Assembly: GCF_004324835.1 (NCBI RefSeq)
Contig: NW_021163311.1
Coordinates: 138,208-152,650, forward strand
Direction of reading: 5' to 3'
DNA: 14,443 nucleotides
From: Dendronephthya gigantea
Taxonomy: Eukaryota
The position numbers and the translations under genes were made by a program. Below the pieces are notes generated by a model. The model worked only from the letters and a program-made list of their open reading frames with translations, was not told the DNA's origin and did not search any database. This document shows, piece by piece, positions 1-14,443 of this stretch; the first letter of the stretch is position 1; every line of letters begins with the position of its first letter.

Positions 1-248
1 GGCGTGCTCTTTTCGGTGTCTCTTAGTCAAATACTTGTCTAGGGCGCGCGCATTAGTTAGAACTTAATTAAATGAAACCGTTTAATTAATAGCGCGAGCA
101 AACTAATCACGACTAACATGATATTTAAGTGACGCGCAAACGTGTATTCAAGTAATTGCACTGATGAAGGTCCGGGTTAACGGACCGAAAGCTTTGCAGT
201 ATTTAATACTTACGTGGTCCTGTACCTAACAAGTTATTATAATTAATA

Positions 249-478
249 AACTAACTTTATTTATACTGGATAGCTCTATCAGTTCTAAACTGTTCTTCCT
301 AGAGGTCAGTAAGGATCATCTCTTATTTGATCCAGTGTTACTACAGGAGGAAACCTGAACTAAACTAACTTTATTTATGCTGGATAGCTCTATCAGTTCT
401 AAACTGTTCTTCCTAGGGTCTAGTAAGGATCATCTCTTATTGATCCAGTGTTACTACAGGAGGAACCTAAACTATTTA
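249..478 (+). repeat. 114-bp satellite family, cluster 1 (about 2 units), in eIF2gamma intron downstream of exon 12
   Basis: Unit ctaactttatttatactggatagctctatcagttctaaactgttcttcctagaggtccagtaaggatcatctcttattgatccagtgttactacaggaggaaacctaaactaaa; period 114 measured between successive ctaactt. Confidence 0.9.
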
Positions 479-519
479 TCCAGAAACATTTAACATCACA
501 TATTGTATGTTTACTCTAC

Positions 520-633
520 CTTGGCAGCTTTTTTGTCACCCTCTGTTCGAACACCCAGCAACCTCCTCAACAAGAAATAACTGATTTCCAGTTCTGTGTA
601 GATTTCTGGCAACGCATCAGCTGCTCCCAAAAC
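520..633 (-). CDS. EIF2S3: eIF2 gamma exon 12: [38 protein letters not shown]; gene continues beyond window start
   Basis: Acceptor ttattttctttggtaag, donor GTAGAG followed by in-frame TAA; matches human [38 protein letters not shown]; about 85 C-terminal residues of domain III are not found in 1-519. Confidence 0.8.
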
Positions 634-714
634 CTTACCAAAGAAAATAAAATATTTTGTCAAAAGGAATTGAAAGCTGTAAATAATGAAACCTAAATGA
701 AATTCTGTACTTAC

Positions 715-770
715 ATGGCCAACCATTCTGTCAGCTCTGCAGAGAGTTGGGTCAATTTTCGTTCCAACAC
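715..770 (-). CDS. EIF2S3: eIF2 gamma exon 11: (G)[18 protein letters not shown]
   Basis: Acceptor ataaaccag, consensus donor GTAAGT; matches human [19 protein letters not shown]; phase 1 in, 0 out. Confidence 0.85.
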
Positions 771-1080
771 CTGGTTTATAATGAAGATAAATGATTATGA
801 AATGCTGCTTTTTACATGTTTTAAATGCAATGGAAATTTGATCAGATATCCCCCAATGCTCGAGTTGTCTGACACAAAAGGTCTACATGTGTCTTGGGTA
901 AAGTTTGACAGATCTTTCTGCAAAGAGTTGGGTCAATTTTCGTTCCAACAACTAGCTTAAAATGAAGATAAATGGAATATGAAATGCAGTTTTTCACATG
1001 GTTTAAATGGAATGAAAAGTTTGATGAAATATCCCTGATACAAAAGACATGTTTCTTGGGTAAAGTTTGATGGATATTCT
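738..1080. repeat. Tandem duplication (about 180-bp segment, 1.9 copies) spanning start of exon 11 and most of the upstream intron
   Basis: Segment 738-918 realigns with 919-1080 (shared strings agagttgggtcaattttcgttccaaca, aatgaagataaatg, cttgggtaaagtttga). Confidence 0.75.
921..953 (-). pseudogene. Degenerate duplicated copy of the 5' part of eIF2gamma exon 11 ([12 protein letters not shown]) inside the exon10-exon11 intron
   Basis: gcaaagagttgggtcaattttcgttccaaca is repeated from 738-768; the acceptor is changed from ccag|GT to ctag|TT and there is no downstream donor or matching continuation. Confidence 0.6.
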
Positions 1081-1083
1081 TAC

Positions 1084-1228
1084 CAATTAGTCCACCAGGT
1101 ACGGCGTACTGAAGATCATTTTGTTCGGCGAACAACGAAACAATCACAGAACAGATTGGTTCCCAACGCAGTTTTCCTTTCTCATCTTTGGAAACAATGC
1201 CTGGACGTACTTCAATCTCTTGACCAAC
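1084..1228 (-). CDS. EIF2S3: eIF2 gamma exon 10: [48 protein letters not shown](G)
   Basis: Acceptor catttttag, donor GTAAGA; matches human [49 protein letters not shown]. Confidence 0.9.
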
Positions 1229-1463
1229 CTAAAATGTTGAATTAGAAATGAATGAAAAGTATAGACCTGCTTCAAATCAGACCTATTGCATCCTTTAAAG
1301 TTCTGGTAAGAGTAATATTTAGTAGAGCTTTGTAGGTGGAGCTATCAATTGTACGCATTTCCACAACAATGTAAACTTGGAGTAGCTGGGAAGATCTCAA
1401 AGAAGCTGGTTAATTCGACTTGTTTGTTATGGAATGGGGACAGCAAAAAGTGATCAACCATAC

Positions 1464-1558
1464 CTTTAAGACACCTTGGAGAATGCTTCCTCCAGCAACA
1501 CCTCCTTTAAGGTCTTGTACTTCGCATCCAGGCTTATTCACGTCAAAAGAACGGATCA
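1464..1558 (-). CDS. EIF2S3: eIF2 gamma exon 9: (V)[31 protein letters not shown]
   Basis: Acceptor tgatttcag, donor GTATGG; matches human [31 protein letters not shown]. Confidence 0.9.
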
Positions 1559-1698
1559 CTGAAATCAAGCAAGTATTTCAAGGTTTAAATTGTGAATAAT
1601 TCTTCAACCAAAGCAAGATACAGTTTCATTACACCATTCATTCAACTGCAAATGATTCTACAGTATTTGGTTATAGTCATGTTGGTCAGTCATCTCAC

Positions 1699-1833
1699 CA
1701 ATGAGCCTTGGTTGTGATGTGAAGTCTCGTCTTGGGATGGGTATTTTCTTGCAAATATATTCACAGATGACTTCAATGTTGTATTTCAACTGCGCCGAGA
1801 TTGGAACAACTGGAGCTCCTTCAGCAACTGTAC
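1699..1833 (-). CDS. EIF2S3: eIF2 gamma exon 8: (G)[44 protein letters not shown](V)
   Basis: Acceptor ccaaag, donor GTGAGA; matches human [45 protein letters not shown]. Confidence 0.9.
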
Positions 1834-1865
1834 CTTTGGTAAGGATAACACACAAAATTATATTT

Positions 1866-2078
1866 TGTTTCAAACTGTTCTTCTAGAGGTTTAGTGAGGA
1901 TAATCTCTTATTGATCCAGTGTTACTACAGGAGAAAACCTAAACTAAACTAACTTTATTTATACTGGATAACTCTATCAGTTCTAAACTGTTCTTCCTAG
2001 AGGTCCAGTAAGGATCATCTCTTATTGATCCAGTGTTACTGCAGGAGGAAACCTAAACAAACTAACTTTATTTATAAA
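1866..2078 (+). repeat. 114-bp satellite family, cluster 2 (about 1.9 units) filling eIF2gamma intron 7
   Basis: Same unit; intron is 1834-2098, so only 32 bp and 20 bp of unique sequence remain at acceptor and donor sides. Confidence 0.9.
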
Positions 2079-2098
2079 TGTAGGACAAAAGCAAATAC

Positions 2099-2257
2099 CT
2101 TCAACAAATTTCAGAATTTCTTTATACTGGTCCTTTGCTTGACTTTCTCGTACAAGATCAATTTTGTTTTGCAAGATGATAATATGTTCAAGTTTCATGA
2201 TCTCGATTGCTGCCAAATGTTCTGATGTCTGAGGTTGGGGGCACGATTCATTGCCAG
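2099..2257 (-). CDS. EIF2S3: eIF2 gamma exon 7: (A)[52 protein letters not shown](G); G4 NKID
   Basis: Acceptor ttattccag, donor GTATTT; 159 nt; matches human [53 protein letters not shown]. Confidence 0.9.
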
Positions 2258-2302
2258 CTGGAATAAAGATTGAAGAATACAGTTATGTACATGCCATAAA
2301 AC

Positions 2303-3597
2303 TGTCACTTGTCAACTCTCATGCAACTCTTGTTCTGGTTTGATCAAGCAATGATAGTTGATGAAACTCTCATGTAAACTCTCACTTGTCAACTCTCATG
2401 CAACTCTTGTTCTCGTTTGATCAAGCAATGATAGTTGATGAAACTCTCATGTAAACTCTCGCTTGTCAACTCTCATGCAACTCTTTTCTCGTTTGATCAA
2501 GCAATGATAGTTGATGAAACTCCCATGTAAACTCTCGCTTGTCAACTCTCATGCAAGTCTTGTTCTTATTTGATCAAGCAATGATAGTTGATGAAACTCT
2601 CATATAAACTCTCGCTTGTCAACTCTCATGCAACTCTTGTTCTCGTTTGATCAAGCAATGATACTTGATGAAACTCTCATGTAAACTCTCGCTTGTCAAC
2701 TCTCATGCAACTCTTGTTCTCGTTTGATCAAGCAATGATAGTTGATGAAACTCCATGTAAACTCTCGCTTGTCAACTCTCATGCAACTCTTGTTCTCGTT
2801 TGATCAAGCAATGATAGTTGATGAAACTCTCATGTAAACTCTCGCTTGTCAACTCTCATACAACTCTTGTTCTCGTTTGATCAAGCAATGATAGTTGATG
2901 AAACTCCCATGTAAACTCTCGCTTGTCAACTCTCATGCAACTCTTGTTCTCGTTTGATCAAGCAATGATAGTTGATGAAACTCCCATGTAAACTCTCGCT
3001 TGTCAACTCTCATGCAACTCTTGTTCTCGTTTGATCAAGCAATGATAGTTGATGAAACTCCCATGTAAACTCTCGCTTGTCAACTCTCATGCAACTCTTG
3101 TTCTCGTTTGATCAAGCAATGATAGTTGATGAAACTCTCATGTAAACTCTCACTTGTCAACTCTCATGCAACTCTTGTTCTCGTTTGATCAAGCAATGAT
3201 AGTTGATGAAACTCCCATGTAAACTCTCGCTTGTCAACTCTCATGCAACTCTTGTTCTCGTTTGATCAAGCAATGATAGTTGATGAAACTCTCATGTAAA
3301 CTCTCACTTGTCAACTCTCATGCAACTCTTGTTCTCGTTTGATCAAGCAATGATAGTTGATGAAACTCCCATGTAAACTCTCGCTTGTCAACTCTCATGC
3401 AACTCTTGTTCTCGTTTGATCAAGCAATGATAGTTGATGAAACTCTCATGTAAACTCTCGCTTGTCAACTCTCATGCAACTCTTGTTCTCGTTTGATCAA
3501 GCAATAATAGTTGATGAAACTCTCATGTAAACTCTCACTTATCAACTCTCATGCAACTCTTGTTCTCGTTTGATCAAGCAATGATAGTTGATGAAAC
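2303..3597. repeat. 77-bp satellite array, about 17 units, occupying nearly all of eIF2gamma intron 6 (2258-3639)
   Basis: Unit tgatcaagcaatgatagttgatgaaactctcatgtaaactctcgcttgtcaactctcatgcaactcttgttctcgtt; period 76-77 measured at 2341, 2418, 2494, 2571. Confidence 0.95.
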
Positions 3598-3639
3598 ATT
3601 TAACCCTCCCATTTTAACACATTGGAATGGAAATCTCAC

Positions 3640-3734
3640 CAATTAGCAACATTGCGGCGTCCATAACGGCTGCTCCGTTCAACATGGTTGCCATAAGAAT
3701 GTCGTGACCTGGGCAATCCACGAAAGAAACATGT
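3640..3734 (-). CDS. EIF2S3: eIF2 gamma exon 6: (R)[31 protein letters not shown](A); switch II DCPGH
   Basis: Acceptor tttattttgtag, donor GTGAGA; matches human [33 protein letters not shown]. Confidence 0.9.
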
Positions 3735-3840
3735 CTACAAAATAAACAATCATTTCTCTATGAATAGATTTTAGAAAGTGTTCTATCAAGATTTACAACG
3801 CACAAAAATTCATGGTTTGTAAGAGTTTATGTACACAAAC

Positions 3841-3962
3841 CTCACTAACTGCGATTTACCCTGGCAACCTGGTCTTTCACATGGTATGATGTCTTCGCGA
3901 GCGCTTCCTGCTGATCGATAACAGCTGGGCCTCTGACAACTGGGGTTGCTGCATTTGTAGAT
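3841..3962 (-). CDS. EIF2S3: eIF2 gamma exon 5: [40 protein letters not shown](R), Cys-rich zinc-ribbon segment
   Basis: Acceptor tttcttag; only donor giving phase compatibility with next exon is GTTTGT after ...GTGAG (122 nt, phase 2); aligns to human IYKLDDPSCPRPECYRS...GNFKLVR and Drosophila-type CxxxxC...CxxxxC. Confidence 0.7.
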
Positions 3963-4652
3963 CTAAGAAATATTTTTCTTGAAATATGGGGTAGATACTG
4001 TAGGCATTCTATTTTCTGCAATGAACTACATATATTCTTTGAAATATGCTACAGCAATGGGTAGGTAAGGAAAATTATCCAGAGTTTCTGATTTCTTTTG
4101 TCTGTCAGTGAAGAAATATTAAAATTGTATGGCTAATTCCAAGGCTAATTGTCGGTGGAGTAAATAAACTTTTGGGTAAAAATAAATAAGAAATGTTCGG
4201 AATAGAATTATCTTGTGTTAATCAAGGGCAAATCTAAACAAAAATCAGTCTAGTTGAGAGGCCTTGGGTTTGTTGCAAATGCACTAGACTTAAATATTAA
4301 GCTTAGTGGCTCTTGTTTTAGTTGATAGGTTCTTCTAATATTTTAGATCCATACATTCAAGACGAAATGTCAAGTCTATAACTATCAATATATGTAGTGA
4401 TCATTGTACAGTACGTGATTAATTAAAGGTCTGTTCACACAATACAAATTTATCAGATCCAATTCACTTCTGATGGATTTTTTATAATCTGTTGACTTGC
4501 AAAGTATACGGGCAGCAAATCAACTGAAGCCAATGCAGACTGTTTTATCAATAACAAACTATATTCCATACATCAGAAGTGAGTTGGACCCGACAAAGTT
4601 GTACAGTCTGAACAGGCCTTAATTTGTTTAAGTATTTATATAACCATAGTAC

Positions 4653-4718
4653 CTTTGCATTAGCATAGCCAAGCTTGATTGTGATATTTCGTTCAAGTTC
4701 GTTTTTAAATCGGACAGT
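4653..4718 (-). CDS. EIF2S3: eIF2 gamma exon 4: [22 protein letters not shown]
   Basis: Acceptor ttttccag, donor GTACTA; 22/22 identical to human eIF2gamma; phase 0/0. Confidence 0.9.
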
Positions 4719-5107
4719 CTGGAAAATAAACAAGCATATAGCAGGTTGTCGCAAAATTTGATGACAACATAAAATGCTGTTTATAATGTCTGAGATTTAT
4801 ATCTTTCAGAAGTCGCAGTTTTGACGGAAGATGAACTTTGCTACCAAGTTATTATGATAGCTCTCTATTCTAACTCAGGCAAAATGCCATGATAAAACTT
4901 GCTATCAAAGCTGTTTTCTACTTCAACCATATTGTAGCATAACGTAGCGTATTTCTTTGTTTCCGAAGTATTCGACCAGAACTAATGACTTTAAAACAAT
5001 GAGATATCCGAGGTTTTGCTACAATACAGTTGAAGTGGAAGACAATGTAAAACAACGCAAGCTTTGCAATGTCTGAGATTTCTTTCGAACAATCTTATAC
5101 ACAATAC

Positions 5108-5132
5108 CTGAACACCAGATAAAGCTTTTACA

Positions 5133-5169
<37 letters not shown>
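5108..5169 (-). CDS. EIF2S3: eIF2 gamma exon 3: (G)[20 protein letters not shown], G1/P-loop GHVAHGKST
   Basis: Acceptor ctag, donor GTATTG; near-identical to human [20 protein letters not shown]. Confidence 0.9.
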
Positions 5170-5172
<3 letters not shown>

Positions 5173-5349
5173 GAAATTAATGAAATTTACATTATTGAAA
5201 TATATTATTTCCTGCAATTGCATAAGCCTTCAGAGGCAAGATTACATCTTAAACCTGTTCATTGCAAATCCATGAAGACGTACATGGTGTAGAGAGTTGA
5301 AACTAAGTAATCATTTTAACTTTGTCATCATTGGTAGAGCAATACTAAC

Positions 5350-5413
5350 CAATATTTATAGTTGCTTGACGGCTGATTACTTCTGGTGTTAGAGGATTTA
5401 GTTCCTCGATTTT
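5350..5413 (-). CDS. EIF2S3: eIF2 gamma exon 2: KIEELNPLTPEVISRQATINI(G)
   Basis: Acceptor tttatag, donor GTTAGT; peptide matches human KLTPLSHEVISRQATINIG; ends phase 1. Confidence 0.85.
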
Positions 5414-5450
5414 CTATAAAATTTAAAAGACATAACCTTTTCAGCTCAGG

Positions 5451-5610
5451 CATTAGCTTGCAATGCACCCAGATGTGGCCTACTTTAGTATTTTACTCTG
5501 TCTAATGTCAGATGATTTTACTCATCAGTGGAAGAGTACTGTCAGTTAATAAGTTAACAAAACTATCTGTCAGTGTCTCTTGTTAACCCATTAGCTTGCA
5601 ATGCACCCAG
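5451..5610 (+). repeat. 138-bp repeat family, copy A (about 1.15 units) in eIF2gamma intron 1
   Basis: Unit gttaacccattagcttgcaatgcacccagatgtg...actcatcagtggaagagtactgtcagttaataagttaacaaaactatctgtcagtgtctctt. Confidence 0.85.
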
Positions 5611-5926
5611 CAACTGATCTGGTTAACTTGCACACGAATCTTTGCACAAATATTTTACCAAAAACAGCCTGAGATTGCCTTAACTTCTATTTAAATATCT
5701 TACAAATAGTTTAGTTTACAAAGAAGAATCAACCATTCCACAATAATAAGAATTCAAAGCATTATTAGATCTCGAAATAAGACTCATTCCTGAGTCAGAT
5801 CATGCCGTAGAAACCACATAAAAAGCGATAATTTTTGCAGTATAAACTCACTTCATATCTACAAAGGTAAAACTATACATAGGGACCAAGATCTTTGTAG
5901 GACGGGGAAAGGATTGGAATAAAATG

Positions 5927-5980
5927 AATATGCTTACCAATTTTGATAAATCCTGCTTTGATAAGCGAGGCTGGCCTACC
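5927..5980 (-). CDS. EIF2S3: eIF2 gamma exon 1 (start codon at 5978-5980, minus strand): MSTEVGQPRLSKQDLSKL
   Basis: Reverse complement reads ATGAGCACCGAG...AAATTG followed by donor GTAAGC; matches N-terminus of eIF2gamma (human ...GQPHLSRQDLTTL); phase 0. Confidence 0.8.
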
Positions 5981-6119
5981 TCGGTGCTCATGATTGCATC
6001 AACAAGGTTTTGTTGATGAAATAAAAATGAAAATTTTTCTTGCGTAAAAAAGCAAAAAATGAGCGAAATTCTGCTTCGAGCTGATGCAATACACGAGTGA
6101 CGGTCAGTGACCATTGATC

Positions 6120-6478
6120 TCTGTAACTGGAGTGATCACGAGAGATGCACTGAGGGATAAACAACACTGGAGTGATAAAAGAGCACCCACTGAGAGACAA
6201 GTGTAACTGGAGTGATCACAGAAGATACACTGAGAGATAAGTATAACTGGAGTGATCACAGAAGACGCACTGAGAGATAAACATACTGGAGTGATAACAA
6301 AAGACGCCCTGAGAGATAAGCACAACTGGAGTGACTACAGAAGACGCACTGAGAGATAAGTATAACTGGAGTGACTACAGCCAGACGCACTGAGAGATAA
6401 TTATAACTGGAGTGATAAAGAAGACACACTGAGAGATAAAGCATTACTGGAGTGATCAAGTGTAAGCATTACTGAAAA
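6120..6478. repeat. 40-bp minisatellite (about 9 units), 140 bp upstream of the eIF2gamma start codon
   Basis: Unit actggagtgatcacagaagacgcactgagagataagtata; actgg recurs at 6126, 6166, 6206, 6246. Confidence 0.9.
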
Positions 6479-7053
6479 GATACATTACCCACATCTTAAC
6501 GGCTATCTAAGGGGAAGATGCACTACGGCCCCCAGACCATGATGTATGTGCACCTAACCGTTACGTCTCAGTGAGAAACAGAGTATGCATTGCCACAAGC
6601 CTAGCGCGTCATAGACGAATCAGCTACAATGACAAGCCTTGAGAGCGAAGATAAATTTAACGTATTTAAGCTTTCCATTGTGACTCACCAAAAAACTTTC
6701 ATTTTTCCACACGGAATAGTTTTAATGTACACTAATAAGTATATCTACATAAAATCATGGTGCAACTAATTAAAGAGATCTATACATTTACTGAGGACGG
6801 TGATCTTCAATACAAGATGTTGAACTTAAAAGTGTACATATAAGTGCAAAAATAATCAAATTTTATCTTACAACAAACTAATATTTTCATCGCAAGGTTA
6901 AAATCAAAAGTGTGCAGTCTGTGAGGTATATTTTTTCAGTCAATAAAACTATACGAAATTATGTCACGGTTAGGCTAGAATAAACACGGCTAATATCAAG
7001 TCTATAATGAATTAAGACGAGAAGTTGAATATTTTGAAGACGCATTCTTATGG

Positions 7054-7251
7054 TTAAGCAATCAGCACTTCTTTGTCGTCAAAGGCCAGTTTTTCAGGCA
7101 ACGGCTCAGCTTTCATCCACCAAAATTCCTCGTTGCCCTTGCTGATTTCATAAGCTTTCTTGCTCTTGCGACAGCAACACATAGCACAGCACATCATGGA
7201 TGCCAAGACGACAAGGAGCCAAGCCGACAAGAATTGCAACTCGCGCGCCAA
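7054..7251 (-). CDS. Orphan coding exon / small ORF encoding a TM helix plus palmitoylation-like Cys cluster and basic tail (LARELQFLSAWLLVVLASMMCCAMCCCRKSKKAYEISKGNEEFWWMKAEPLPEKLAFDDKEVLIA*)
   Basis: 66-codon open frame ending TAA at 7054-7056. It begins with TTG, not ATG, so it is not a complete gene. A ttgttccag acceptor lies at 7252-7260. I found no upstream ATG exon in 7260-7440. Confidence 0.25.
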   Translation of the reverse strand: MARELQFLSAWLLVVLASMMCCAMCCCRKSKKAYEISKGNEEFWWMKAEPLPEKLAFDDKEVLIA

Positions 7252-7297
7252 ACTGGAACAAAGGCTTTTGCCGTGGTGATGTTTCTAGATAATGTAG

Positions 7298-7366
7298 ATA
7301 TTTATTACATATATTTTTACATATTATATTTATTACATATTAAATTTATTACATATTATATTTAAG
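7298..7366. repeat. AT-rich microsatellite, about 16-bp unit (atttattacatattat)
   Basis: tttattacatat recurs 4 times. Confidence 0.8.
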
Positions 7367-7455
7367 GGTAGATATTTACTACAACCTGAGGCGGTTCGAG
7401 GTTTAAATAACAAAGAGGAATTTCATTTTAAACTAATCGGTGACATTTTTGAGGG

Positions 7456-7578
7456 AAAGCCAATCAGAATGCGTACATTTTAATTACTTCATGTAAAATG
7501 GTACATATTGTACTTTTTATCAAAATTTATGCATTCTGATTGGCTTACTGAAAATGTAAACAAACTTGCTGATTGGCT
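7456..7578. promoter_or_regulatory. Cluster of three CCAAT/ATTGG boxes, two forming a perfect 16-bp inverted repeat (aagccaatcagaatgc ... gcattctgattggctt)
   Basis: CCAAT at 7459-7463; ATTGG at 7537-7541 and 7572-7576; arms 7456-7471 and 7530-7545 are exact reverse complements. Confidence 0.45.
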
Positions 7579-7810
7579 AAAACGAAATTCTAAATAAATC
7601 GATTGAAATCGTCTGAAAAACCACGAAAAAAATCGATTTTTTAAAGTTTTTTTTTAAGTCCTGGCAAAATATTGCTGTAAGAATAAACTTCACGCATACG
7701 AATTCAAAAGTTTACTCTAGAAAGCAATCGTATTTTGGTATAATACTAATCCTAATATTCACAAAAAGCATTTTCTTAAAAATAAACCGTACAAATTCTC
7801 CGCTATTAAA

Positions 7811-8001
7811 CATGAGCCCGGTTACCGAGATTTAAAGAAGCGTTAAATTGACTTTGAGTTTTTGAAATGAGTAAATAACATGATCCTGGTAGTCGTGAAG
7901 TCATTCTAACAATAGCATGCAATGTTTCTGTTTCAAAAGACTTTTCTCAATACTTAAAATTCCGTTTTACGCTTCGTTAAATCTCCGTAACCTGGCTCAT
8001 G
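7811..8001. mobile_element. Foldback / MITE-like element with about 36-bp imperfect inverted arms
   Basis: catgagcccggttaccgagatttaaagaagcgttaa (7811-7846) against ttacgcttcgttaaatctccgtaacctggctcatg (7967-8001), about 85 percent complementary. Confidence 0.5.
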
Positions 8002-8041
8002 CGAAGAACGTTTAAAATAAGAATTTGTTTACTTTCTCAGG

Positions 8042-8420
8042 CTTAGGGCGTGTTTATATGATCCCGTCTAGCCGGGACGGGATGTTTTCATCCCGCTTAG
8101 CCGGGAAACTCGCCTACGCGGATGGCGTGTTTATATGGAGTTCATTTTGTGGTGCAGGTTCCTTCGACGGCATGTTTTATTGTAGAAAACGAGTATGCCA
8201 ATATATACACATGCTCCTAATGTATGTTAATCGCGAATCATCTCGGCCAAGCGGGGATGGAGTGTTTATATGGCAATTTCTCGTCCTGTCTAAGCGGGAT
8301 CCCGGCAAGAAGTGCCGAAGAAAAGTGGTCATATAAACACTAATTAGCGTTTGTACTACAAGCGGGATCTCGGAAACTGTCCCGTCCCGGCTAGACGGGA
8401 TCATATAAACAGGCCCTAAG
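8042..8420. mobile_element. MITE (379 bp) with 41-bp terminal inverted repeats and subterminal gtgtttatatg / cccgcttagccggga motifs
   Basis: Left end cttagggcgtgtttatatgatcccgtctagccgggacggga against right end tcccgtcccggctagacgggatcatataaacaggccctaag (1 mismatch); no unambiguous TSD. Confidence 0.8.
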
Positions 8421-8546
8421 TTGAGCTACCGTTGAATCAAGGACATATGCTCCACTTTGCTAAAAAGCATCTTCGATAGTTACTAATACTACGCTATTTT
8501 GTTTAAATGTGACTGAGTTTTGAACTTTACGACAGTGGTATGAATT

Positions 8547-8650
8547 TTATCCACACATTTTATACAAAACTTTTGAAAGCTTTACATGATGACCATATCC
8601 TTTCTCGTCTGGCAGAGATGGATCCAAAAATCTTTTCGGCTTTTTGTCAT
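8547..8650 (-). CDS. Candidate terminal exon of signal-peptide gene: (N)DKKPKRFLDPSLPDEKGYGHHVKLSKVLYKMCG*
   Basis: Only phase-compatible acceptor (cttctag) downstream of exon 4; TAA at 8547-8549; weak support. Confidence 0.3.
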
Positions 8651-8690
8651 CTAGAAGTTTCAAATAGTTCGGATATTGTTACCAAATTTA

Positions 8691-9250
8691 GCTCCATCAG
8701 TTCTAAACTGTTCTTCCTAGAGGTCCAGTAAGGATCATCTCTTATTGATCCAGTGTTACTACAGGAGGAAACCTAAACTAAACTAACTTTATTTATACTG
8801 GATAGCTCTATAGTTCTAAACTGTTCTTTCTAGAGATCCAGTAAGGATCATCTCTTATTGACCCAGTGTTGCTACAGGAGGAAACCTAAACTAAACTAAC
8901 TTTATTTATACTGGATAGCTCTATCAGTTCTAAACTGTTCTTCCTAGAGGTCCAGGAGGGATCATCTCTTATTGATCCAGTGTTACTACAGGAGGAAACC
9001 TAAACTAAACTAACTTTATTTATACTGGATAGCTCTATCAGTTCTAAACTGTTCTTCCTAGAGGTCCAGTAAGGATCATCTCTTATTGATCCAGTGTTAC
9101 TACAGGAGGAAACCTAAACTAAACTAACTTTATTTATACTGGATAACTCTATCAGTTCTGAACTGTTCCTCCTAGAGGTCCAGTAAGGATCATCTCTTAT
9201 TGATCCAGTGTTACTACAGGAGGAAACCTAAACTATATTTATATTGGATG
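8691..9250 (+). repeat. 114-bp satellite family, cluster 3 (about 4.9 units) in last intron of the signal-peptide gene
   Basis: Five tandem units with minor variants (113-114 bp). Confidence 0.9.
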
Positions 9251-9270
9251 AACAAGATACAATAACATAC

Positions 9271-9385
9271 TTTTTCCACAGTATCTGGACAACTCAGCTT
9301 TTTTAATGTTTGATTCCTCGAACTTAACCGCAGCAATTGTTCGTCTGAATTCTTTGCCATTCACATCCATATGAATTGTCAGCAC
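9271..9385 (-). CDS. Signal-peptide gene exon 4: VLTIHMDVNGKEFRRTIAAVKFEESNIKKAELSRYCGK
   Basis: Acceptor ctactcag, donor GTATGT; open frame, phase 0 in / 1 out, consistent with exon 3. Confidence 0.6.
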
Positions 9386-9464
9386 CTGAGTAGATTAGAT
9401 TGATTTTTAAAGCTATTAAAGTGTTTAATATCCTTATGCATTCAACAGGACTCTTGATTCTTAA

Positions 9465-9885
9465 GCCCTGGTCAAACGAGAATGATAGTTGATGAGAGTT
9501 GAGAAGCGAGAGTTTGCACGAGAGTTTTCCAAACTCTCGATGCGCCGGTCAAACGAGAATGAGAGTTGAGAACGAGAGTTGATTACGGCGCGCATTAATT
9601 TCGTCCTTACTCCACTTCGTTTTGCTTTTTTTGTTTCTGCCCGTTGTTTTCAGAAGATTTCTTTTTTTTTTCAAAAAAATTGCAAACCGCTAGCTGTTTT
9701 GCAACTCTCATCAACTCTCATGACCGATCAAACGCGCCCAAACTCTCATCAACTCTCATCAAAATTTGAACCAGTTCAAAGTCAATGAGAGTTGATGAGA
9801 GTGCACGAGAGTGTATGAGAGTTCGCGGTCAAACGCAAGCGAGAGTTGCAACTCTCATCAACTCTCATTCTCGTTTGACCAGGGC
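9465..9885. mobile_element. MITE (421 bp) with about 40-bp TIR GCCCTGGTCAAACGAGAATGA.AGTTGATGAGAGTTG, flanked by TTAA on both sides (9461-9464 and 9886-9889); lies in intron 3 of signal-peptide gene
   Basis: Left cTTAAgccctggtcaaacgagaatgatagttgatgagagttg; right caactctcatcaactctcattctcgtttgaccagggcTTAAa; internal ctctcatcaactctcat subrepeats; TTAA duplication is piggyBac-like. Confidence 0.8.
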
Positions 9886-9911
9886 TTAAAGGTTTCATCC
9901 ATAAAAATTAC

Positions 9912-10057
9912 CTGAACATCGACTTGTTCAACTCGCTTTTCATTAATGAATTGCACTTGTTCTTCGATCAAATATTGATGTCCCGATTCCAGCTCCTTTC
10001 TCATCACCATTACGTGAATTATGACAGGAAGAATGCGAACATCTTTGGCAGAGTAAA
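9912..10057 (-). CDS. Signal-peptide gene exon 3: (V)YSAKDVRILPVIIHVMVMRKELESGHQYLIEEQVQFINEKRVEQVDVQ
   Basis: Acceptor tttcacag, donor GTAATT; phase 1 in / 0 out. Confidence 0.6.
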
Positions 10058-10276
10058 CTGTGAAATGAATACACAACAATTAGCCCAGAACTTATCCAAA
10101 TCTTCTCTGTCAAAAGAATTTAGGCTGTATGCACATGAAGGTAAATCAGTTATGATTTTTGGCACTTCACTCGAGGTAGGTAAATTCTAATGGTTCTTAG
10201 GGTGTTAATTTCGAGTGGAATTATACACACTTCAAATTCAAGCCAGGAACAGTTGATGGAAAATGAGTCAACTATC

Positions 10277-10352
10277 GGTCCTCCGGCAGAAATCGAACCT
10301 ATGCTTTTGCGATGCCGGTGCAATGCTCTTGCCACTGAGCTACAGAGGTAGC
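10277..10352 (-). ncRNA. tRNA-like Pol III element (degenerate tRNA or SINE head) with A box TAGCTCAGTGG and B box GGTTCGATT
   Basis: Minus strand acctctgtaGCTCagtggcaaGAGCattgcaccggcatcgcaaaagcataGGTTCGATTtctgccggaggacc; resembles tRNA-Ala but acceptor and T stems do not pair. Confidence 0.45.
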
Positions 10353-10741
10353 TGACAAGAGCAAGCGTGGTTAGTGTGCATATGATGGTAATCATCTGTG
10401 TGCACATGAGCGTCGTTTTCGAACATTCTCAAAATCGTTTTCATCCAGATTATTGCTTTGACACTTTGTCAACATGATCCAAGGGAAAATATGCTGAATA
10501 TGTTAAATTAGCTTCAAATTGACTGTGTTTGAAACAGTTTGAAATGAAAACGAAAATGTAAATGCGTGCACATGCATAGCCTTAGAATGAAAAAGCTGAA
10601 CCTGACTGCACCATTAGTGGAAGGTGTAAAGTCTGATTCAAAAGCTATGCTGGAAACTTAGTTTCAAAATATCACTGCTGTAGAAAACATTCAAAGTGAA
10701 GAATATATTTATAATAGCAAATAAATTTAGGTTGTTCGTAC

Positions 10742-10841
10742 CAATCTCAGCAGTGAGGTCGTACTTCGTAAGAACATCTAGTTCTGTGAGTTTCCCATTA
10801 ATTCTGACACTGTCTTCCTGGATTGTAATGTTCAATTTCAC
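10742..10841 (-). CDS. Signal-peptide gene exon 2: VKLNITIQEDSVRINGKLTELDVLTKYDLTAEI(V)
   Basis: Acceptor aattctcag, donor GTACGA; phase 0 in / 1 out. Confidence 0.6.
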
Positions 10842-10896
10842 CTGAGAATTAATACAACAGCATTGTGAGCAATAAATTATTTATTAAATGTTAAAG

Positions 10897-11140
10897 TAGG
10901 TCACATCTGGGTGCATTGCAAGCTAATGGGTTAACAAGAGACACTGACAGATAGTTTTGTTAACTTATTAACTGACAGTACTCTTCCACTGATGAGTAAA
11001 ATCATCTGGCATTAGACAGAGTAAAATACTAAAGTAGATCACATCTGGGTGCATTGCAAGCTAATGGTTATCACAGATAGTTTTGTTTACTTGGTAATGA
11101 CAATGATCAAGTGGTGAGTAAAATCATCTGGCTGATGGAA
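10897..11140 (-). repeat. 138-bp repeat family, copy B (reverse orientation, about 1.7 units) in intron 1 of the signal-peptide gene
   Basis: Reverse complement of the unit: aggtcacatctgggtgcattgcaagctaatgggttaacaagagacactgacag... Confidence 0.85.
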
Positions 11141-12035
11141 CTTATAAAATAAATAAACGTTTATAAAAGTACATTTAGAGACGCCTACTATTGCAAAGTC
11201 ATTGCTAAATTCAGCTGAGGCAATCTTAAAGACACAGCTAGCAACTTTGAGGAATTTTTCCCGTTAACAAGAGGCAAAATTGTGCTTTGTCATGTTTTTG
11301 TGGGGAGGAATTTCATCAACAACACGCAATAATAGTTATGTAATAACTTGCTTTCTATAACGTTATATAAAAATATAGATTAAGAAAACTTCCGACCGCA
11401 AATTTCCCACTTAAAACGACTATCTGAAGACGTGCAGGTGTTTTCAAAAAGGGTATTAAAACAAGACTTGTACAATATGAATAATGTTCAGATATTGACA
11501 CATGCTGGGAATATTTCGTCGCTTTTATTTTGCGATTTTATGAACAACGATCTTAGTTGATAAAACCAAGTTTCGTTTCGATTAAAAGCAGGAAGATTTT
11601 GAAGCGATGTTTTGAAGCTTCGATCGCAGTTTTGTTCAGATCAATCGAAGCAATTTTTGCGTTTTAAAAGGAAAAAGATTAGAGAAAGTTTTGGCAGCTA
11701 AAGGCGCCATAGACAAGGACATGTCACAACTTATTTCCTTCTTTCCCAAATTGGATTCCCGGTTACAAAAGAAAACAAAACAAAGTACCAACGTTTCCTC
11801 GAAGAAAATACACTGCAATTCAACTGCCTTGGCTGCAGATTTTCGTTTTGATTCAAAACGAAACAATCTGAACTTTGTGTGAAAGCCGTGTCGCAGTTAA
11901 ATTCAAAGTATTTTAAGCTCTTTCTATGCCGAATATAAACGCCGCATTTCTATGTTTACAAATACAAGACTCTATCATCCATTACTGGGCTACTTTTAAC
12001 TAGTTTTCTCTTCGAATTCATGCACAAATACTTAC

Positions 12036-12209
12036 AATAACTTCGGTTTCTCGTCTGCCGTTTGCGGAGTCTTCCTCCTCGATGATTTTCACAGAGATAG
12101 AGAGCTTCTCTTTTGAATGTTTTGTGCCAGATTTGAGGTCGTTTTCGCCGGCAAAAACTGCCTGGAATATCGCCAAAAACAAGACGAAATGGCCAAGCAC
12201 TTCAAACAT
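12036..12209 (-). CDS. Signal-peptide gene exon 1: MFEVLGHFVLFLAIFQAVFA|GENDLKSGTKHSKEKLSISVKIIEEEDSANGRRETEVI (predicted cleavable signal peptide)
   Basis: ATG at 12207-12209 (minus), hydrophobic h-region then VFA-G, consensus donor GTAAGT at 12030-12035; faces GC-box promoter. Confidence 0.55.
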
Positions 12210-12417
12210 GGTTTATTTGCTCAAAAAACAGATATAAAAGCGATAATATTGAACAGGAGAAGCACAGCGCGAATGCGGATTGCAATATGTAAACAGCTTG
12301 GAAAAGCTGTATAATATTTACATATTAACTCGTTGCAAGGGTGATAACTATTGTTATTAATACTATCGGTTAATAATTAATGACCATATATAGAGCCAAG
12401 ATTCAACGTATTATACA

Positions 12418-12660
12418 TATGCGGATAATCCCTTAGATAATCCGGTAAAGTTAATCCGGTAGAATTAATCAGTAGCAGTAATCAGTGAGCTCACTGGCAG
12501 TAATATCCAGATTCAACGAATGTGATCCTAAACCCTAGAGAATTAGGTTTAAAATAGATTAAGGATTAGACTAACTCGATTAAAGATTAGATTAGATTCG
12601 GTCAATGGTTAGAACTTAGAATGAAAGCTTGCATTGTAGAATATGGATATAGGATTATCT
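12418..12660. promoter_or_regulatory. Cluster of TAATCC / GGATTA (K50 homeodomain-type) motifs upstream of signal-peptide gene
   Basis: gataatccc, gataatccgg, gttaatccgg, ggattagac, aggattatc plus several TAATCA / GATTAG. Confidence 0.25.
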
Positions 12661-12739
12661 GATTTAATTTCGTTGAGATCCAGATATCCTATGTCTATGT
12701 TAATAATATATACAATGCAAGCCTTATCTAGATATGGTA

Positions 12740-13056
12740 GCCCACCCCATAGGGAACACCAGCTACATGATCAGTGATGGTACCACTACACGTTAACGAT
12801 ACCCCCCGCCCTCCTCATAGCCCACAGACGTCACTCGAGTTTTTTAAATTTCAATGAAGTAATATTACCCTCCTATATTGACCGCCAACCCACGCCACAA
12901 GGCCAGAGGGCCCCGCCCCTCCCCCTATCGCGTGCGACCCCCTCTGGCAAGCAGTTCAAGTATGCCTAAAGTACTTGACCTTTGTACGTTGGAGCTCTCT
13001 TTATATCTCATTTCCATATTTCATTGAAATTTGAATAAATATTCAATACAAATAAA
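12740..13056. promoter_or_regulatory. Bidirectional GC-rich promoter between divergent signal-peptide gene and ferredoxin gene (GC boxes ccccgcccc at 12911-12919 and ccccccgccctcc at 12803-12815, CACCC box at 12743-12749, TATA-like ctttatatct at 12999-13008)
   Basis: Only GC-rich island in window; lies between two divergent ATGs 847 bp apart. Confidence 0.55.
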
Positions 13057-13223
13057 ATGGCTCATCTTCGAAGACTCGCATCGCTTTCCACGAGAAGATC
13101 TTTGAGGAAATCCTTGTCAAGTTACTTGTATTCGTCTTCGACAAAACTTCAAAACAACGTCGCTTTATGTGGTACCACTTATCGTCATGTTAGTTCGAGT
13201 GGAGCAAAATTACAGCCGGACAC
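13057..13223 (+). CDS. FDX1: Ferredoxin exon 1: MAHLRRLASLSTRRSLRKSLSSYLYSSSTKLQNNVALCGTTYRHVSSSGAKLQPD(T), Arg/Ser-rich mitochondrial presequence
   Basis: ATG 13057; donor AC|GTAAGT (phase 2); presequence-like composition. Confidence 0.65.
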
Positions 13224-13410
13224 GTAAGTCGATGAAAATGTATATTTAATTATGTATATATTTCACGTTTTAGTGTTTACTCGAAGTCATATGGCGATTG
13301 AGTGATTAATTAAAACGAATTCCCGTTTTTATGTAATTCTTCAATGTTCACTTGGCTATATTTTGCTAAAAAAAACGACACCAACAATAATTTTACTCAT
13401 GGGAAGAGTT

Positions 13411-13720
13411 GTTAACCCATTAGCTTGCAATGCACCCAGATGTGACCTATTTAAGTATTTTACTCTGTCTAATGTCAGATGATTTTACTCATCAGTGGAA
13501 GAATACTGTCAGTTAATAAGTTAACAAAACTATCTGTCAGTGTCTCTTGTTAACCCATTAGCTTGCAATGCACCCAGATGTGACCTATTTAAGTATTTTA
13601 CTCTGTCTAATGTCAGATGATTTTACTCATCAGTGGAAGAGTACTGTCAGTTAATAAGTTAACAAAACTATCTGTCAGTGTCTCTTGTTAACCCATTAGC
13701 TTGCAATGCACCCAGATGTG
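13411..13720 (+). repeat. 138-bp repeat family, copy C (2.25 tandem units) in ferredoxin intron 1
   Basis: gttaaccc recurs at 13411, 13549, 13687 (period 138). Confidence 0.9.
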
Positions 13721-13829
13721 TTTTTTTAGTTTTCAAATAATTTAGGAGGATATTGCCTCCTTTTGACTGGCCAACCAGTGACTGGCACCGGATTTCACGG
13801 CTTCAAAGGTTTGTTTGTTTCTTCTCCAG

Positions 13830-13936
13830 AGCATCAATCACATTTCACGATCGAGATGGCGACAAGAAAACAGTTTCAGCCAAATATGGAGATTCACTTC
13901 TTGATGTTGCAAAGAATAATGATATTGATTTGGAAG
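13830..13936 (+). CDS. FDX1: Ferredoxin exon 2: (T)ASITFHDRDGDKKTVSAKYGDSLLDVAKNNDIDLE(G)
   Basis: Acceptor ttcttctccag, donor G|GTAAGA; matches adrenodoxin [36 protein letters not shown]. Confidence 0.85.
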
Positions 13937-14021
13937 GTAAGAATGACTACACTGCTCTCTTTTAGCCATGAGTTTATTAACACGTTTTGAATATCTTCTC
14001 TTCATCAAATTTCACATCGAG

Positions 14022-14157
14022 GTGCTTGTGAAGGAACTCTGAGCTGTTCAACTTGTCATCTTATATTTGATCCGGACGAATTTGCCAAGTTGGATCTACC
14101 TGAACCAGATGATGAAGAACTAGATATGCTTGATCTGGCCTATGGTTTGACACCAAC
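14022..14157 (+). CDS. FDX1: Ferredoxin exon 3: (G)[44 protein letters not shown](T); [2Fe-2S] Cys ligands CxxxxxCxxC
   Basis: Acceptor catcgag, donor AC|GTAAGA; near-identical to human FDX1 [50 protein letters not shown]; remaining exons off-window. Confidence 0.9.
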
Positions 14158-14159
14158 GT

Positions 14160-14443
14160 AAGAGATGATCCTTACTGGACCTCTAGGAAGAACAGTTTAG
14201 AACTGATAGAACTATCCAGTATAAATAAAGTTAGTTTAGTTTAGGTTTCCTCCTGTAGTAACATTGGATCAATAAGAGATGATCCTTACTGGAACTCTAG
14301 GAAGAACAGTTAAGAACTGATAGAGTTATCCAGTATAAATAAAGTTAGTTTAGTTTAGTTTCCTCCTGTAGTAACACTGGATCAATAAGAGAAGATCCTT
14401 ACTGGACCTCTAGGAAGAACAGTTTAGAATGATAAGAGCTATC
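14160..14443 (-). repeat. 114-bp satellite family, cluster 4 (reverse-complement orientation, 2.5 units or more, truncated by window end) starting 2 bp after ferredoxin exon 3 donor
   Basis: Plus strand reads agagatgatccttactggacctctaggaagaacagtttagaactgatag..., the reverse complement of the unit. Confidence 0.9.

Follow-up and report, generated by a model that had tools for sequence, protein, structure and literature searches.

A 114-bp octocoral tandem repeat with the same intron sites and the same consensus in two families

Metazoan retrozymes and hammerhead-ribozyme satellites, which have been reported in cnidarians among other animals, are tandem repeats that give rise, on transcription, to self-cleaving and circular RNAs. 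Other tandem repeats are dispersed in euchromatin or borne by transposable elements; these include the arrays associated with Helitrons/Helentrons and with miniature inverted-repeat transposable elements (MITEs) in Crassostrea gigas and other bivalves, those of Tribolium, and the Drosophila 1.688 satellite (PMC10048060; PMC4675708). "Frozen" ancient satellites, such as PRAT of Palorus beetles, FA-SAT, and the sturgeon HindIII and PstI repeats, are described, in the portions of PMC10048060 that cite them, as having a monomer consensus that stays constant between long-separated species, with no species-diagnostic variants. Finally, introners are near-identical sequences present in the introns of unrelated genes, each inserted as a single unit (PMC9860276; PMC4457414), although cnidarians are not mentioned in the main text of the introner survey (PMC9860276). 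Elements of all four systems can be recognized in a 114-bp tandem repeat present in 14,443 nt of DNA (referred to here as the window) from the octocoral Dendronephthya gigantea (contig NW_021163311.1, positions 138,208 to 152,650), whose genome consists of 7.24% tandem repeats (PMC6447388). The repeat occupies four short introns of three neighboring genes. The same four introns are occupied in Paramuricea clavata, a member of another octocoral family, and the consensus of the unit is unchanged across a neutral divergence that is saturated. This combination was not expected. Full-text searching of the literature found no prior description of the unit's sequence or of octocoral satellites in introns.

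Like retrozymes, the repeat consists of short tandem units, appears constrained over the whole unit, and is found in marine invertebrates. Unlike them, it matches no ribozyme family, hammerhead or other (Rfam, E up to 1), and its fold is not unusually stable. The CUGAUGA plus GAAA core is absent, and inspection by eye revealed no convincing box C/D motif or hammerhead core. Indeed, no Rfam family of any kind was found in the arrays on either strand at E up to 1, and RNA folding of both strands is unremarkable (minimum free energy z-scores of -1.1 and -0.8); a cluster of intronic small nucleolar RNAs or microRNAs thus finds neither an Rfam match nor a stable fold in the unit. The likeness to euchromatic and transposon-borne satellites is broader, including short head-to-tail arrays (2-8 units) of a unit of ~100-170 bp, a scattered distribution in gene-rich DNA, a probable abundance in the genome, preferred end phases, and an apparently MITE-derived 77-bp satellite nearby. 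However, the 114-bp arrays showed neither a flanking transposon body nor terminal inverted repeats, target-site duplications, or Helitron termini, and those systems offer no parallel to a consensus that is unchanged across saturated neutral divergence or to the use of the same small introns in two families. The repeat behaves like the frozen satellites in that 0 of 114 consensus positions differ between species, compared with 52% of fourfold sites and introns that cannot be aligned. As far as the cited accounts in PMC10048060 go, though, the latter mostly form long heterochromatic arrays, whereas here a few units lie in introns of housekeeping genes at positions common to the species.

Repeats in the window were detected using Tandem Repeats Finder, blastn with the consensus, and an nhmmer profile built from 32 units. 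Tandem Repeats Finder reported 114-bp arrays at 8689-9235 (4.8 copies, 95% matches) and 14159-14443 (2.5 copies); blastn with the 114-bp consensus added arrays at 247-474 and 1869-2076, and no further copies in the window were seen above noise with blastn or at all with nhmmer. Spliced gene models, built by hand with every junction checked for GT-AG and reading frame, place these arrays within eIF2-gamma (gene A, minus strand), a GINM1-like gene (gene B, minus strand), and a gene for a mitochondrial 2Fe-2S ferredoxin (gene C, plus strand). Array c1 (247-478, plus strand, ~2 units by blastn and nhmmer) is in eIF2-gamma intron 12, an intron that also holds the repeat in Paramuricea. Array c2 (1866-2078, plus strand, ~1.9 units) is in eIF2-gamma intron 7 (1834-2098), leaving 52 nt of unique sequence in an intron of 265 nt. 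Array c3 (8689-9250, plus strand, 4.8 units and a shortened terminal unit) is in gene B intron 4 (8651-9270, 620 nt), and c4 (14159-14443, minus strand, at least 2.5 units, cut by the window end) is in ferredoxin intron 3, starting from the T of the donor GT. The intron status of c1 and c4 rests on orthology, one flanking exon of each being beyond the window. The arrays in the window are 93-100% identical to the consensus. At all loci considered here (four in the window, six in P. clavata, and one in a relative, L005, described below) the period is 114, with 93-95% matches and head-to-tail monomers.

The forward unit is on the plus strand in c1-c3 and on the minus strand in c4; consequently, the transcribed strand carries the reverse-complement unit in all four cases. 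Unique sequence between repeat and donor amounts to 41-45 nt for c1, 20-22 nt for c2, 20-35 nt for c3, and 1 nt for c4, while the acceptor flanks are 32-35 nt (c2) and 38 nt (c3). At c4 the donor GTAAGAG overlaps the aTAAGAG of the unit, so that the unit provides the whole donor except the G. A first-pass annotation, made from the letters of the window, had placed four clusters at these positions in introns of three genes on both strands, with this relation to the transcribed strand and with closely similar flank lengths. The repeat searches and the gene models bear it out on each of these counts.

How such a repeat came to lie within these introns depends in part on the age of the introns. 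The eIF2-gamma exons of 122/95/159/135/95/145/56/114 nt are equal in length in the window, Nematostella, and Paramuricea, with a 173-nt exon following in Nematostella. Since the lengths of the exons around intron 7 (159/135) and intron 12 (114/next) are unchanged in both Nematostella and Paramuricea, these two introns are older than the anthozoan radiation. The ferredoxin exons are 167/107/136 in the window, 170/107/136/94 in Xenia, 173/107/136/94 in Paramuricea, and 164/107/136/94 in the stony coral Pocillopora. Intron 3 interrupts the same codon in phase 2 in Xenia, Paramuricea, and Pocillopora, and in Xenia it is only 64 nt long and lacks the repeat. The position of gene B intron 4 is present in the two sequences compared, Paramuricea and L005, both of which carry the repeat there. 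By this comparison all four intron positions are ancestral, and the repeat did not make the introns.

The first-pass annotation had called for just such a comparison with relatives. It had favored insertion into ancestrally short introns, with only splice-critical flanks surviving, over an introner-like element, and the shared positions and exon lengths support this preference. The introner idea, that the repeat is an intron-generating element responsible for these introns, has some appeal. As in introners, several introns of unrelated genes consist largely of near-identical sequence (four arrays, three genes), and one copy overlaps a 5' splice site, the c4 unit giving the donor except for its G. 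In addition, the P. clavata ferredoxin intron retains just 10 and 17 nt of non-repeat sequence. Against this, the intron positions are present in repeat-free taxa (Nematostella for eIF2-gamma; Xenia, without the repeat, and Pocillopora for ferredoxin). Moreover, the real splice signals of three of the four arrays lie in unique flanks, 20-45 nt long next to the donor and 32-38 nt long next to the acceptor, and the arrays are tandem and of variable length rather than unit-length insertions. Because the intron positions are shared, the introner model is rejected; it is almost certainly wrong for this repeat, whose introns are older than it is and whose splice signals are chiefly in unique flanks. 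The case also serves as a caution that similar introns across many genes need not be introners.

The comparison with P. clavata uses two sequences, L004, containing the ferredoxin locus, and L007, a 19.9-kb contig in which the orthologue of gene B adjoins eIF2-gamma. In P. clavata, 6.9 copies of the 114-bp unit lie in ferredoxin intron 3 (L004 3218-4039), with the orientation seen in D. gigantea; the units are 94-99% identical to the D. gigantea consensus, and the non-repeat flanks are 10 and 17 nt. L007 contains 114-bp arrays in gene B intron 4 (168 nt from the donor and 34 nt from the acceptor) and in eIF2-gamma introns 7 and 12, again oriented as in D. gigantea. Thus, each of the four D. 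gigantea arrays is matched by one in the same P. clavata intron, with five of 20 comparable introns occupied (hypergeometric P~0.001). The best reading is that the D. gigantea arrays are not independent recent insertions, and that the set of occupied introns is common to another octocoral family. L007 also has two arrays of its own. One, which is reversed, is in eIF2-gamma intron 3 at a distance of 14-19 nt from the donor; the other lies between the gene B stop codon and the eIF2-gamma ATG, outside coding introns. The former, the only opposite-orientation array in Paramuricea, is in an extra octocoral intron (window 4719-5107; L007 10035-10846) that splits a 128-nt exon of Nematostella into 62 and 66 nt and that contains no 114-bp array in D. 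gigantea. The latter stands in place of a 40-bp tandem repeat (6124-6456, 8.3 copies, 79% matches) that is found in the window within the 1.06-kb spacer from the eIF2-gamma start to the gene B stop.

Dendronephthya and Paramuricea are both members of Malacalcyonacea (PMC11959691). The consensus of 10 D. gigantea units and that of 22 P. clavata units are identical at 114 of 114 positions. Units of one array have a pairwise identity of 93.8%, those of different arrays in one species 93.2%, and those of different species 92.9%; the units diverge from the consensus by 2.7% in D. gigantea and 3.8% in P. clavata. A test for concerted evolution found only array-private variants, the units being no more alike within species than between them. 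Neutral DNA, by contrast, has diverged. At fourfold sites the two species differ in 81 of 157 eIF2-gamma positions (52%, K~0.87) and in 17 of 32 ferredoxin positions (K~0.9 overall), and the coding DNA of eIF2-gamma is 83% identical. In blastn comparisons of the D. gigantea and P. clavata loci, only exons (70-91%) and repeats align, with no alignment of unique intron DNA. Another repeat family shared by the two species, a 138-bp element, is 73-84% identical between them.

Neutral concerted evolution was rejected as the cause of this identity. Under random homogenization, the consensus should change at the mutation rate. The time to fixation, about the pairwise diversity divided by the mutation rate, corresponds to ~0.07, compared with ~0.43 substitutions per site per lineage since the split, so about half of the positions should have changed; 0 of 114 have done so. 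Cross-contamination of the two assemblies was rejected as well, as the arrays are set within species-specific exons and flanks. The frozen consensus therefore suggests either that the sequences that seed or convert the arrays are constrained over their whole length or that there has been horizontal exchange. Variation along the unit is uneven, with positions 56-80 and 95-114 nearly invariant, and this unevenness partly reflects array-private variants that have been copied.

A third species indicates how old the occupancy of one site is relative to its present units. L005, a Tara metagenome scaffold, is from an octocoral closer to D. gigantea; the two are 75.8% identical across 1.5 kb of DNA from introns and intergenic regions. 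It is syntenic with the window (ferredoxin exon 1 followed by gene B) and carries the 114-bp repeat in gene B intron 4, so that c3 has orthologous arrays both there and in Paramuricea. The 8-mer TTGTTCAT adjoins the repeat in both L005 and D. gigantea (P~0.014 by shuffling), and the first D. gigantea unit differs from that of L005 by a deletion of ~35 nt. The L005 units are 11.6% diverged from the consensus, mostly by private changes. As this is about the per-lineage share of a 24% divergence, the L005 array has decayed approximately neutrally from what is still today's consensus. At the orthologous site in D. gigantea, however, the units are 95.6-100% identical to the consensus. Given the decay of the L005 array, the D. 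gigantea units would therefore have been renewed. Other signs of age are visible at the margins. When all arrays are taken together, the units at the edges have diverged further than those inside (median identity 96.1 versus 97.4%, P = 0.005), and degenerate edge units with 78-93% identity are present. Together with the private variants carried by the arrays, this edge decay fits turnover in place from which the edges escape.

The array ends are not randomly phased. Of 20 ends, 14 fall within a single 34-nt AT-rich stretch of the unit, CCTAAACTAAACTAACTTTATTTATACTGGA (scan-corrected P~0.008), and several arrays both begin and finish in AACTAACTTTATTTATA. Such clustering suggests a discrete insertion or recombination unit. 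The flanks at the junctions are AT-rich, and no target-site duplication was seen in these few (20) junctions. Scans of JGI metagenomes for the 114-bp unit gave no match beyond one chance 22-mer. Neighboring repeats provide a possible precedent for the derivation of a satellite from a mobile element. A 77-bp satellite at 2299-3597 (16.9 copies, 97% matches) fills eIF2-gamma intron 6, leaving flanks of 41 and 42 nt. Its unit shows 78-88% identity with subterminal parts of an element of 429 bp at 9461-9889 in gene B intron 3. This element lies between TTAA sequences and has tips of the CCC...GGG type, and its inverted ends, 41 nt each, are 98% complementary. The 429-bp element looks like a piggyBac-type MITE. 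By this resemblance the 77-bp satellite would be derived from MITE termini, a local precedent for the 114-bp family.

The explanation that best accommodates these results, held with a probability of roughly 0.55, is that the repeat is a tandem-repeat family, ancient and probably mobile, with arrays that are lodged in introns and repeatedly renewed from a pool under sequence constraint, while selection on splicing preserves only the flanks. The arrays would belong to one dispersed, satellite-like 114-bp family of octocorals, which probably either is carried by a non-autonomous mobile element with preferred ends or is itself such an element. They would have entered four pre-existing spliceosomal introns, originally ~50-70 nt, of three neighboring housekeeping genes, and the introns would have been occupied before Dendronephthya and Paramuricea split. 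Purifying selection would remove arrays that harm the 5' splice site, branch point, polypyrimidine tract, or 3' splice site, so that arrays could grow until just the splice-critical flanks remained; in ferredoxin intron 3, the unit's aTAAGAG is merged with the donor. Meanwhile, array interiors would be renewed by unequal exchange within arrays, together with gene conversion or re-integration from a pool of constrained copies. Such renewal would yield what is seen here, namely old sites, young-looking units (~3% from consensus), and a frozen consensus. Confidence in renewal is moderate.

Several observations weigh against this explanation. At none of the four introns do D. gigantea and P. clavata agree in unique flanks or in the phases of the junctions; apart from the junction common to L005 and c3, the orthology of the arrays is thus a matter of co-occurrence within introns rather than of common junctions. 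Arrays at orthologous sites resemble each other no more than arrays at different sites do, which fits renewal and independent insertion equally. Examination of the 20 junctions by eye revealed no terminal inverted repeats, target-site duplications, Helitron TC/CTRR ends, or common non-repeat termini, and the case for mobility is drawn from the preferred end phases alone. No source was found for a constraint on 114 positions, given that there is no Rfam family and predicted folding is unremarkable. Finally, the sample consists of ~45 kb from three species.

The differing junctions and the lack of special likeness between orthologous arrays would also be expected if an active element had recently and independently chosen the same permissive introns and the same orientation in each lineage. 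The small distance of the units from the consensus in both species (~3%) is in keeping with this idea, and the two extra P. clavata arrays mean that insertion or loss went on after the split. However, without the repeat these introns are tiny targets (~50-100 nt), the co-occupancy has P~0.001 with introns weighted equally, the orientation is common to all four sites, and no target motif or target-site duplication is visible. In addition, the junction common to L005 and c3, together with decay that is about equal to the species divergence, argues that this site was occupied before the present units arose, and the degenerate edge units likewise suggest an older occupancy. Recent site-selective insertion is therefore considered unlikely. 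The frozen consensus invites a different thought, that one element has spread recently among octocoral lineages by horizontal transfer. In aquatic animals, transposable elements are often transferred horizontally, and the absence of any fixed consensus difference, with an identity between species equal to that within them, is what a recent transfer would produce. Transfer alone, though, cannot put a repeat into the same four small introns in the same orientation, and the L005 array implies that the consensus was already in place at about the time when D. gigantea and L005 diverged. D. gigantea and P. clavata also live in different oceans. Horizontal transfer is thus judged very improbable.

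A further possibility is that the host itself maintains the unit, whether as DNA, in a cis-regulatory or protein-binding module, or as an RNA derived from the intron. An identical consensus at a K4 of ~0.87, exceeding the conservation of eIF2-gamma coding DNA (83%), the use of the same four introns and the same strand in two families, and the near invariance of two segments of the unit could all be understood in this way. Yet the orthologous L005 array has decayed at an approximately neutral rate, the Xenia ferredoxin intron does without the repeat, and copy number, phase, and flanks are not conserved. The repeat in P. clavata is also found reversed and outside coding introns, the RNA analyses gave no Rfam match and z-scores of merely -0.8 and -1.1, and the uneven variation along the unit arises partly from copied array-private variants. 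Host function is consequently regarded as quite unlikely. A more general version, in which selection acts directly on the 114-nt unit from end to end, the unit being either a new kind of mobile element that has homed to remnants of its own arrays ever since the two octocoral families separated or an iterated functional module (DNA-binding or RNA) in introns of housekeeping genes, can be offered only tentatively and is on balance doubtful. If it were true, the age of a site and the age of its sequence would be decoupled, unlike in ordinary satellite or transposon models.

On the preferred explanation of renewal from a constrained pool, three adjacent conserved genes with four short introns, in at least three species, would present a case in which the positions of a repeat are older than its sequence. 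The system would make rival ideas (constraint on the pool, conversion between loci, homing of circles, host function) testable with public octocoral genomes. It would also partly explain the growth of octocoral introns, as the arrays inflate introns of 50-70 nt to 0.3-0.8 kb.

The first-pass annotation had also proposed that the repeat occurs only in introns, always in one orientation relative to host transcription, and always near a 5' splice site. All three statements describe the four arrays of the window correctly, but they do not extend to the repeat as such. Introns make up 84% of the non-exonic window, so that all four arrays would be intronic by chance with P~0.5, and P. clavata has an array between genes. 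A single orientation in four of four has P = 0.125, and the P. clavata eIF2-gamma intron 3 array is reversed; when orientation is counted by events, the four shared arrays point one way and the two P. clavata-specific arrays one each way, giving 5:1 (two-sided P~0.2). Proximity to the donor is automatic in short introns. The introns that host c2 and c3 are just 52-58 nt long without the repeat, and for this reason these arrays are close to splice sites, whereas one P. clavata array is 168 nt from its donor. The 77-bp satellite, which is unrelated, likewise leaves just 41 and 42 nt in eIF2-gamma intron 6. The rules of placement, orientation, and donor distance are thus small-sample effects that carry no statistical weight in the window. 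The accompanying suggestion, that the orientation avoids a cryptic splice site in the sense orientation, is not supported. With a rough position weight matrix for splice sites, trained on 36 local introns, the observed orientation contains a best cryptic donor of 5.4 bits (real donors: mean 8.5, minimum 4.2) and a cryptic acceptor of 6.3 bits, both better than those of the opposite orientation. As read from the sequence, the pre-mRNA of every unit in the observed orientation also contains an AATAAA followed by a GU-rich stretch.

The host genes themselves are readily identified. Gene A encodes eIF2-gamma (Pfam GTP_EFTU and domain 2), with 12 exons in the window and the next exon past position 1. 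Exon 12 (520-633, minus strand, 114 nt, the same length in Nematostella and Paramuricea) ends at a donor at 519, GCCAAG/gtagag, 41-45 nt from c1. Exon 7 (2099-2257, minus strand, 159 nt) ends at the donor TTGAAG/gtattt, 20 nt from c2, and exon 8 (1699-1833, minus strand, 135 nt) bears the acceptor of the same intron. Gene B comprises six exons between 12209 and 7054 and encodes a 277-aa product with a GINM1_N domain. Its exon 4 (9271-9385, minus strand), in which the model agrees with the NCBI protein, has the donor GAAAAA/gtatgt, and exon 5 (8586-8650, minus strand) has the acceptor cttctag/AT, 38 nt from c3. Gene C, with three exons in the window, encodes an FDX2/adrenodoxin-like mitochondrial ferredoxin. 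The donor of its exon 3 (14022-14157, plus strand, 136 nt, unchanged in length and phase in Xenia, Paramuricea, and Pocillopora) is ACCAAC/gtaagag, the GT being at 14158-14159. Both the ferredoxin product and that of gene B match, at 100% identity, proteins encoded on a 152,650-bp contig of D. gigantea. The locus occurs a second time on a 375,850-bp D. gigantea contig; this copy is probably the other haplotype of this highly heterozygous draft assembly (PMC6447388).

Some irregularities were observed in the gene models. The NCBI ferredoxin model on the contig of the window (XP_028417271.1, 137 aa) ends in ...GLTPT; it runs from exon 3 straight into the repeat (ACG TAA) and is without the exon for the fourth cluster cysteine. 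The copy on the second contig has the full 167 aa. The window, and probably the contig, terminates inside the c4 array, which may be the source of a local fault in annotation and assembly at ferredoxin. For gene B, the database protein reads GYGHHHK where the splice in the window (8586-8650 / 7284) gives GYGHHK, one histidine fewer, which may represent an allelic CAT difference between the contigs or another choice of junction. In eIF2-gamma, the start of exon 11 and some of the upstream intron are duplicated within intron 10 (~905-960 versus 715-770); the copy keeps an acceptor-like AG, diverges after ~36 nt, and is either a pseudo-exon or an unused alternative exon.

Other repeats are present in the introns of the window. 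A hairpin or MITE-like element at 4412-4634 in eIF2-gamma intron 4, an 82-nt inverted repeat, gives a weak match to an Rfam plant microRNA precursor. With 41 bits against a gathering threshold of 105, it is only a structural look-alike. Gene B intron 5 contains another such element (8042-8420) with 48-nt inverted ends that are 92% complementary. In gene B intron 2, a tRNA-like sequence at 10278-10349 (minus strand, sense to the gene) scores 36.1 bits with the Rfam tRNA model (gathering 29) and is called by ARAGORN as Ala with anticodon GGC; lacking the G3:U70 pair, it is probably a tRNA-derived repeat or a pseudogene. The 138-bp family is present in the first introns of all three genes (13409-13720, 5451-5609, and 10886-11100), with 2.3 tandem copies in ferredoxin intron 1 and a mixed orientation relative to the host. 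The family is also found in first introns of Paramuricea and L005 (L007 4197-4292, 9654-9770, and 11887-11955; L004 2634-2725 and others; L005 2193-2439), with an identity between species of 73-93%.

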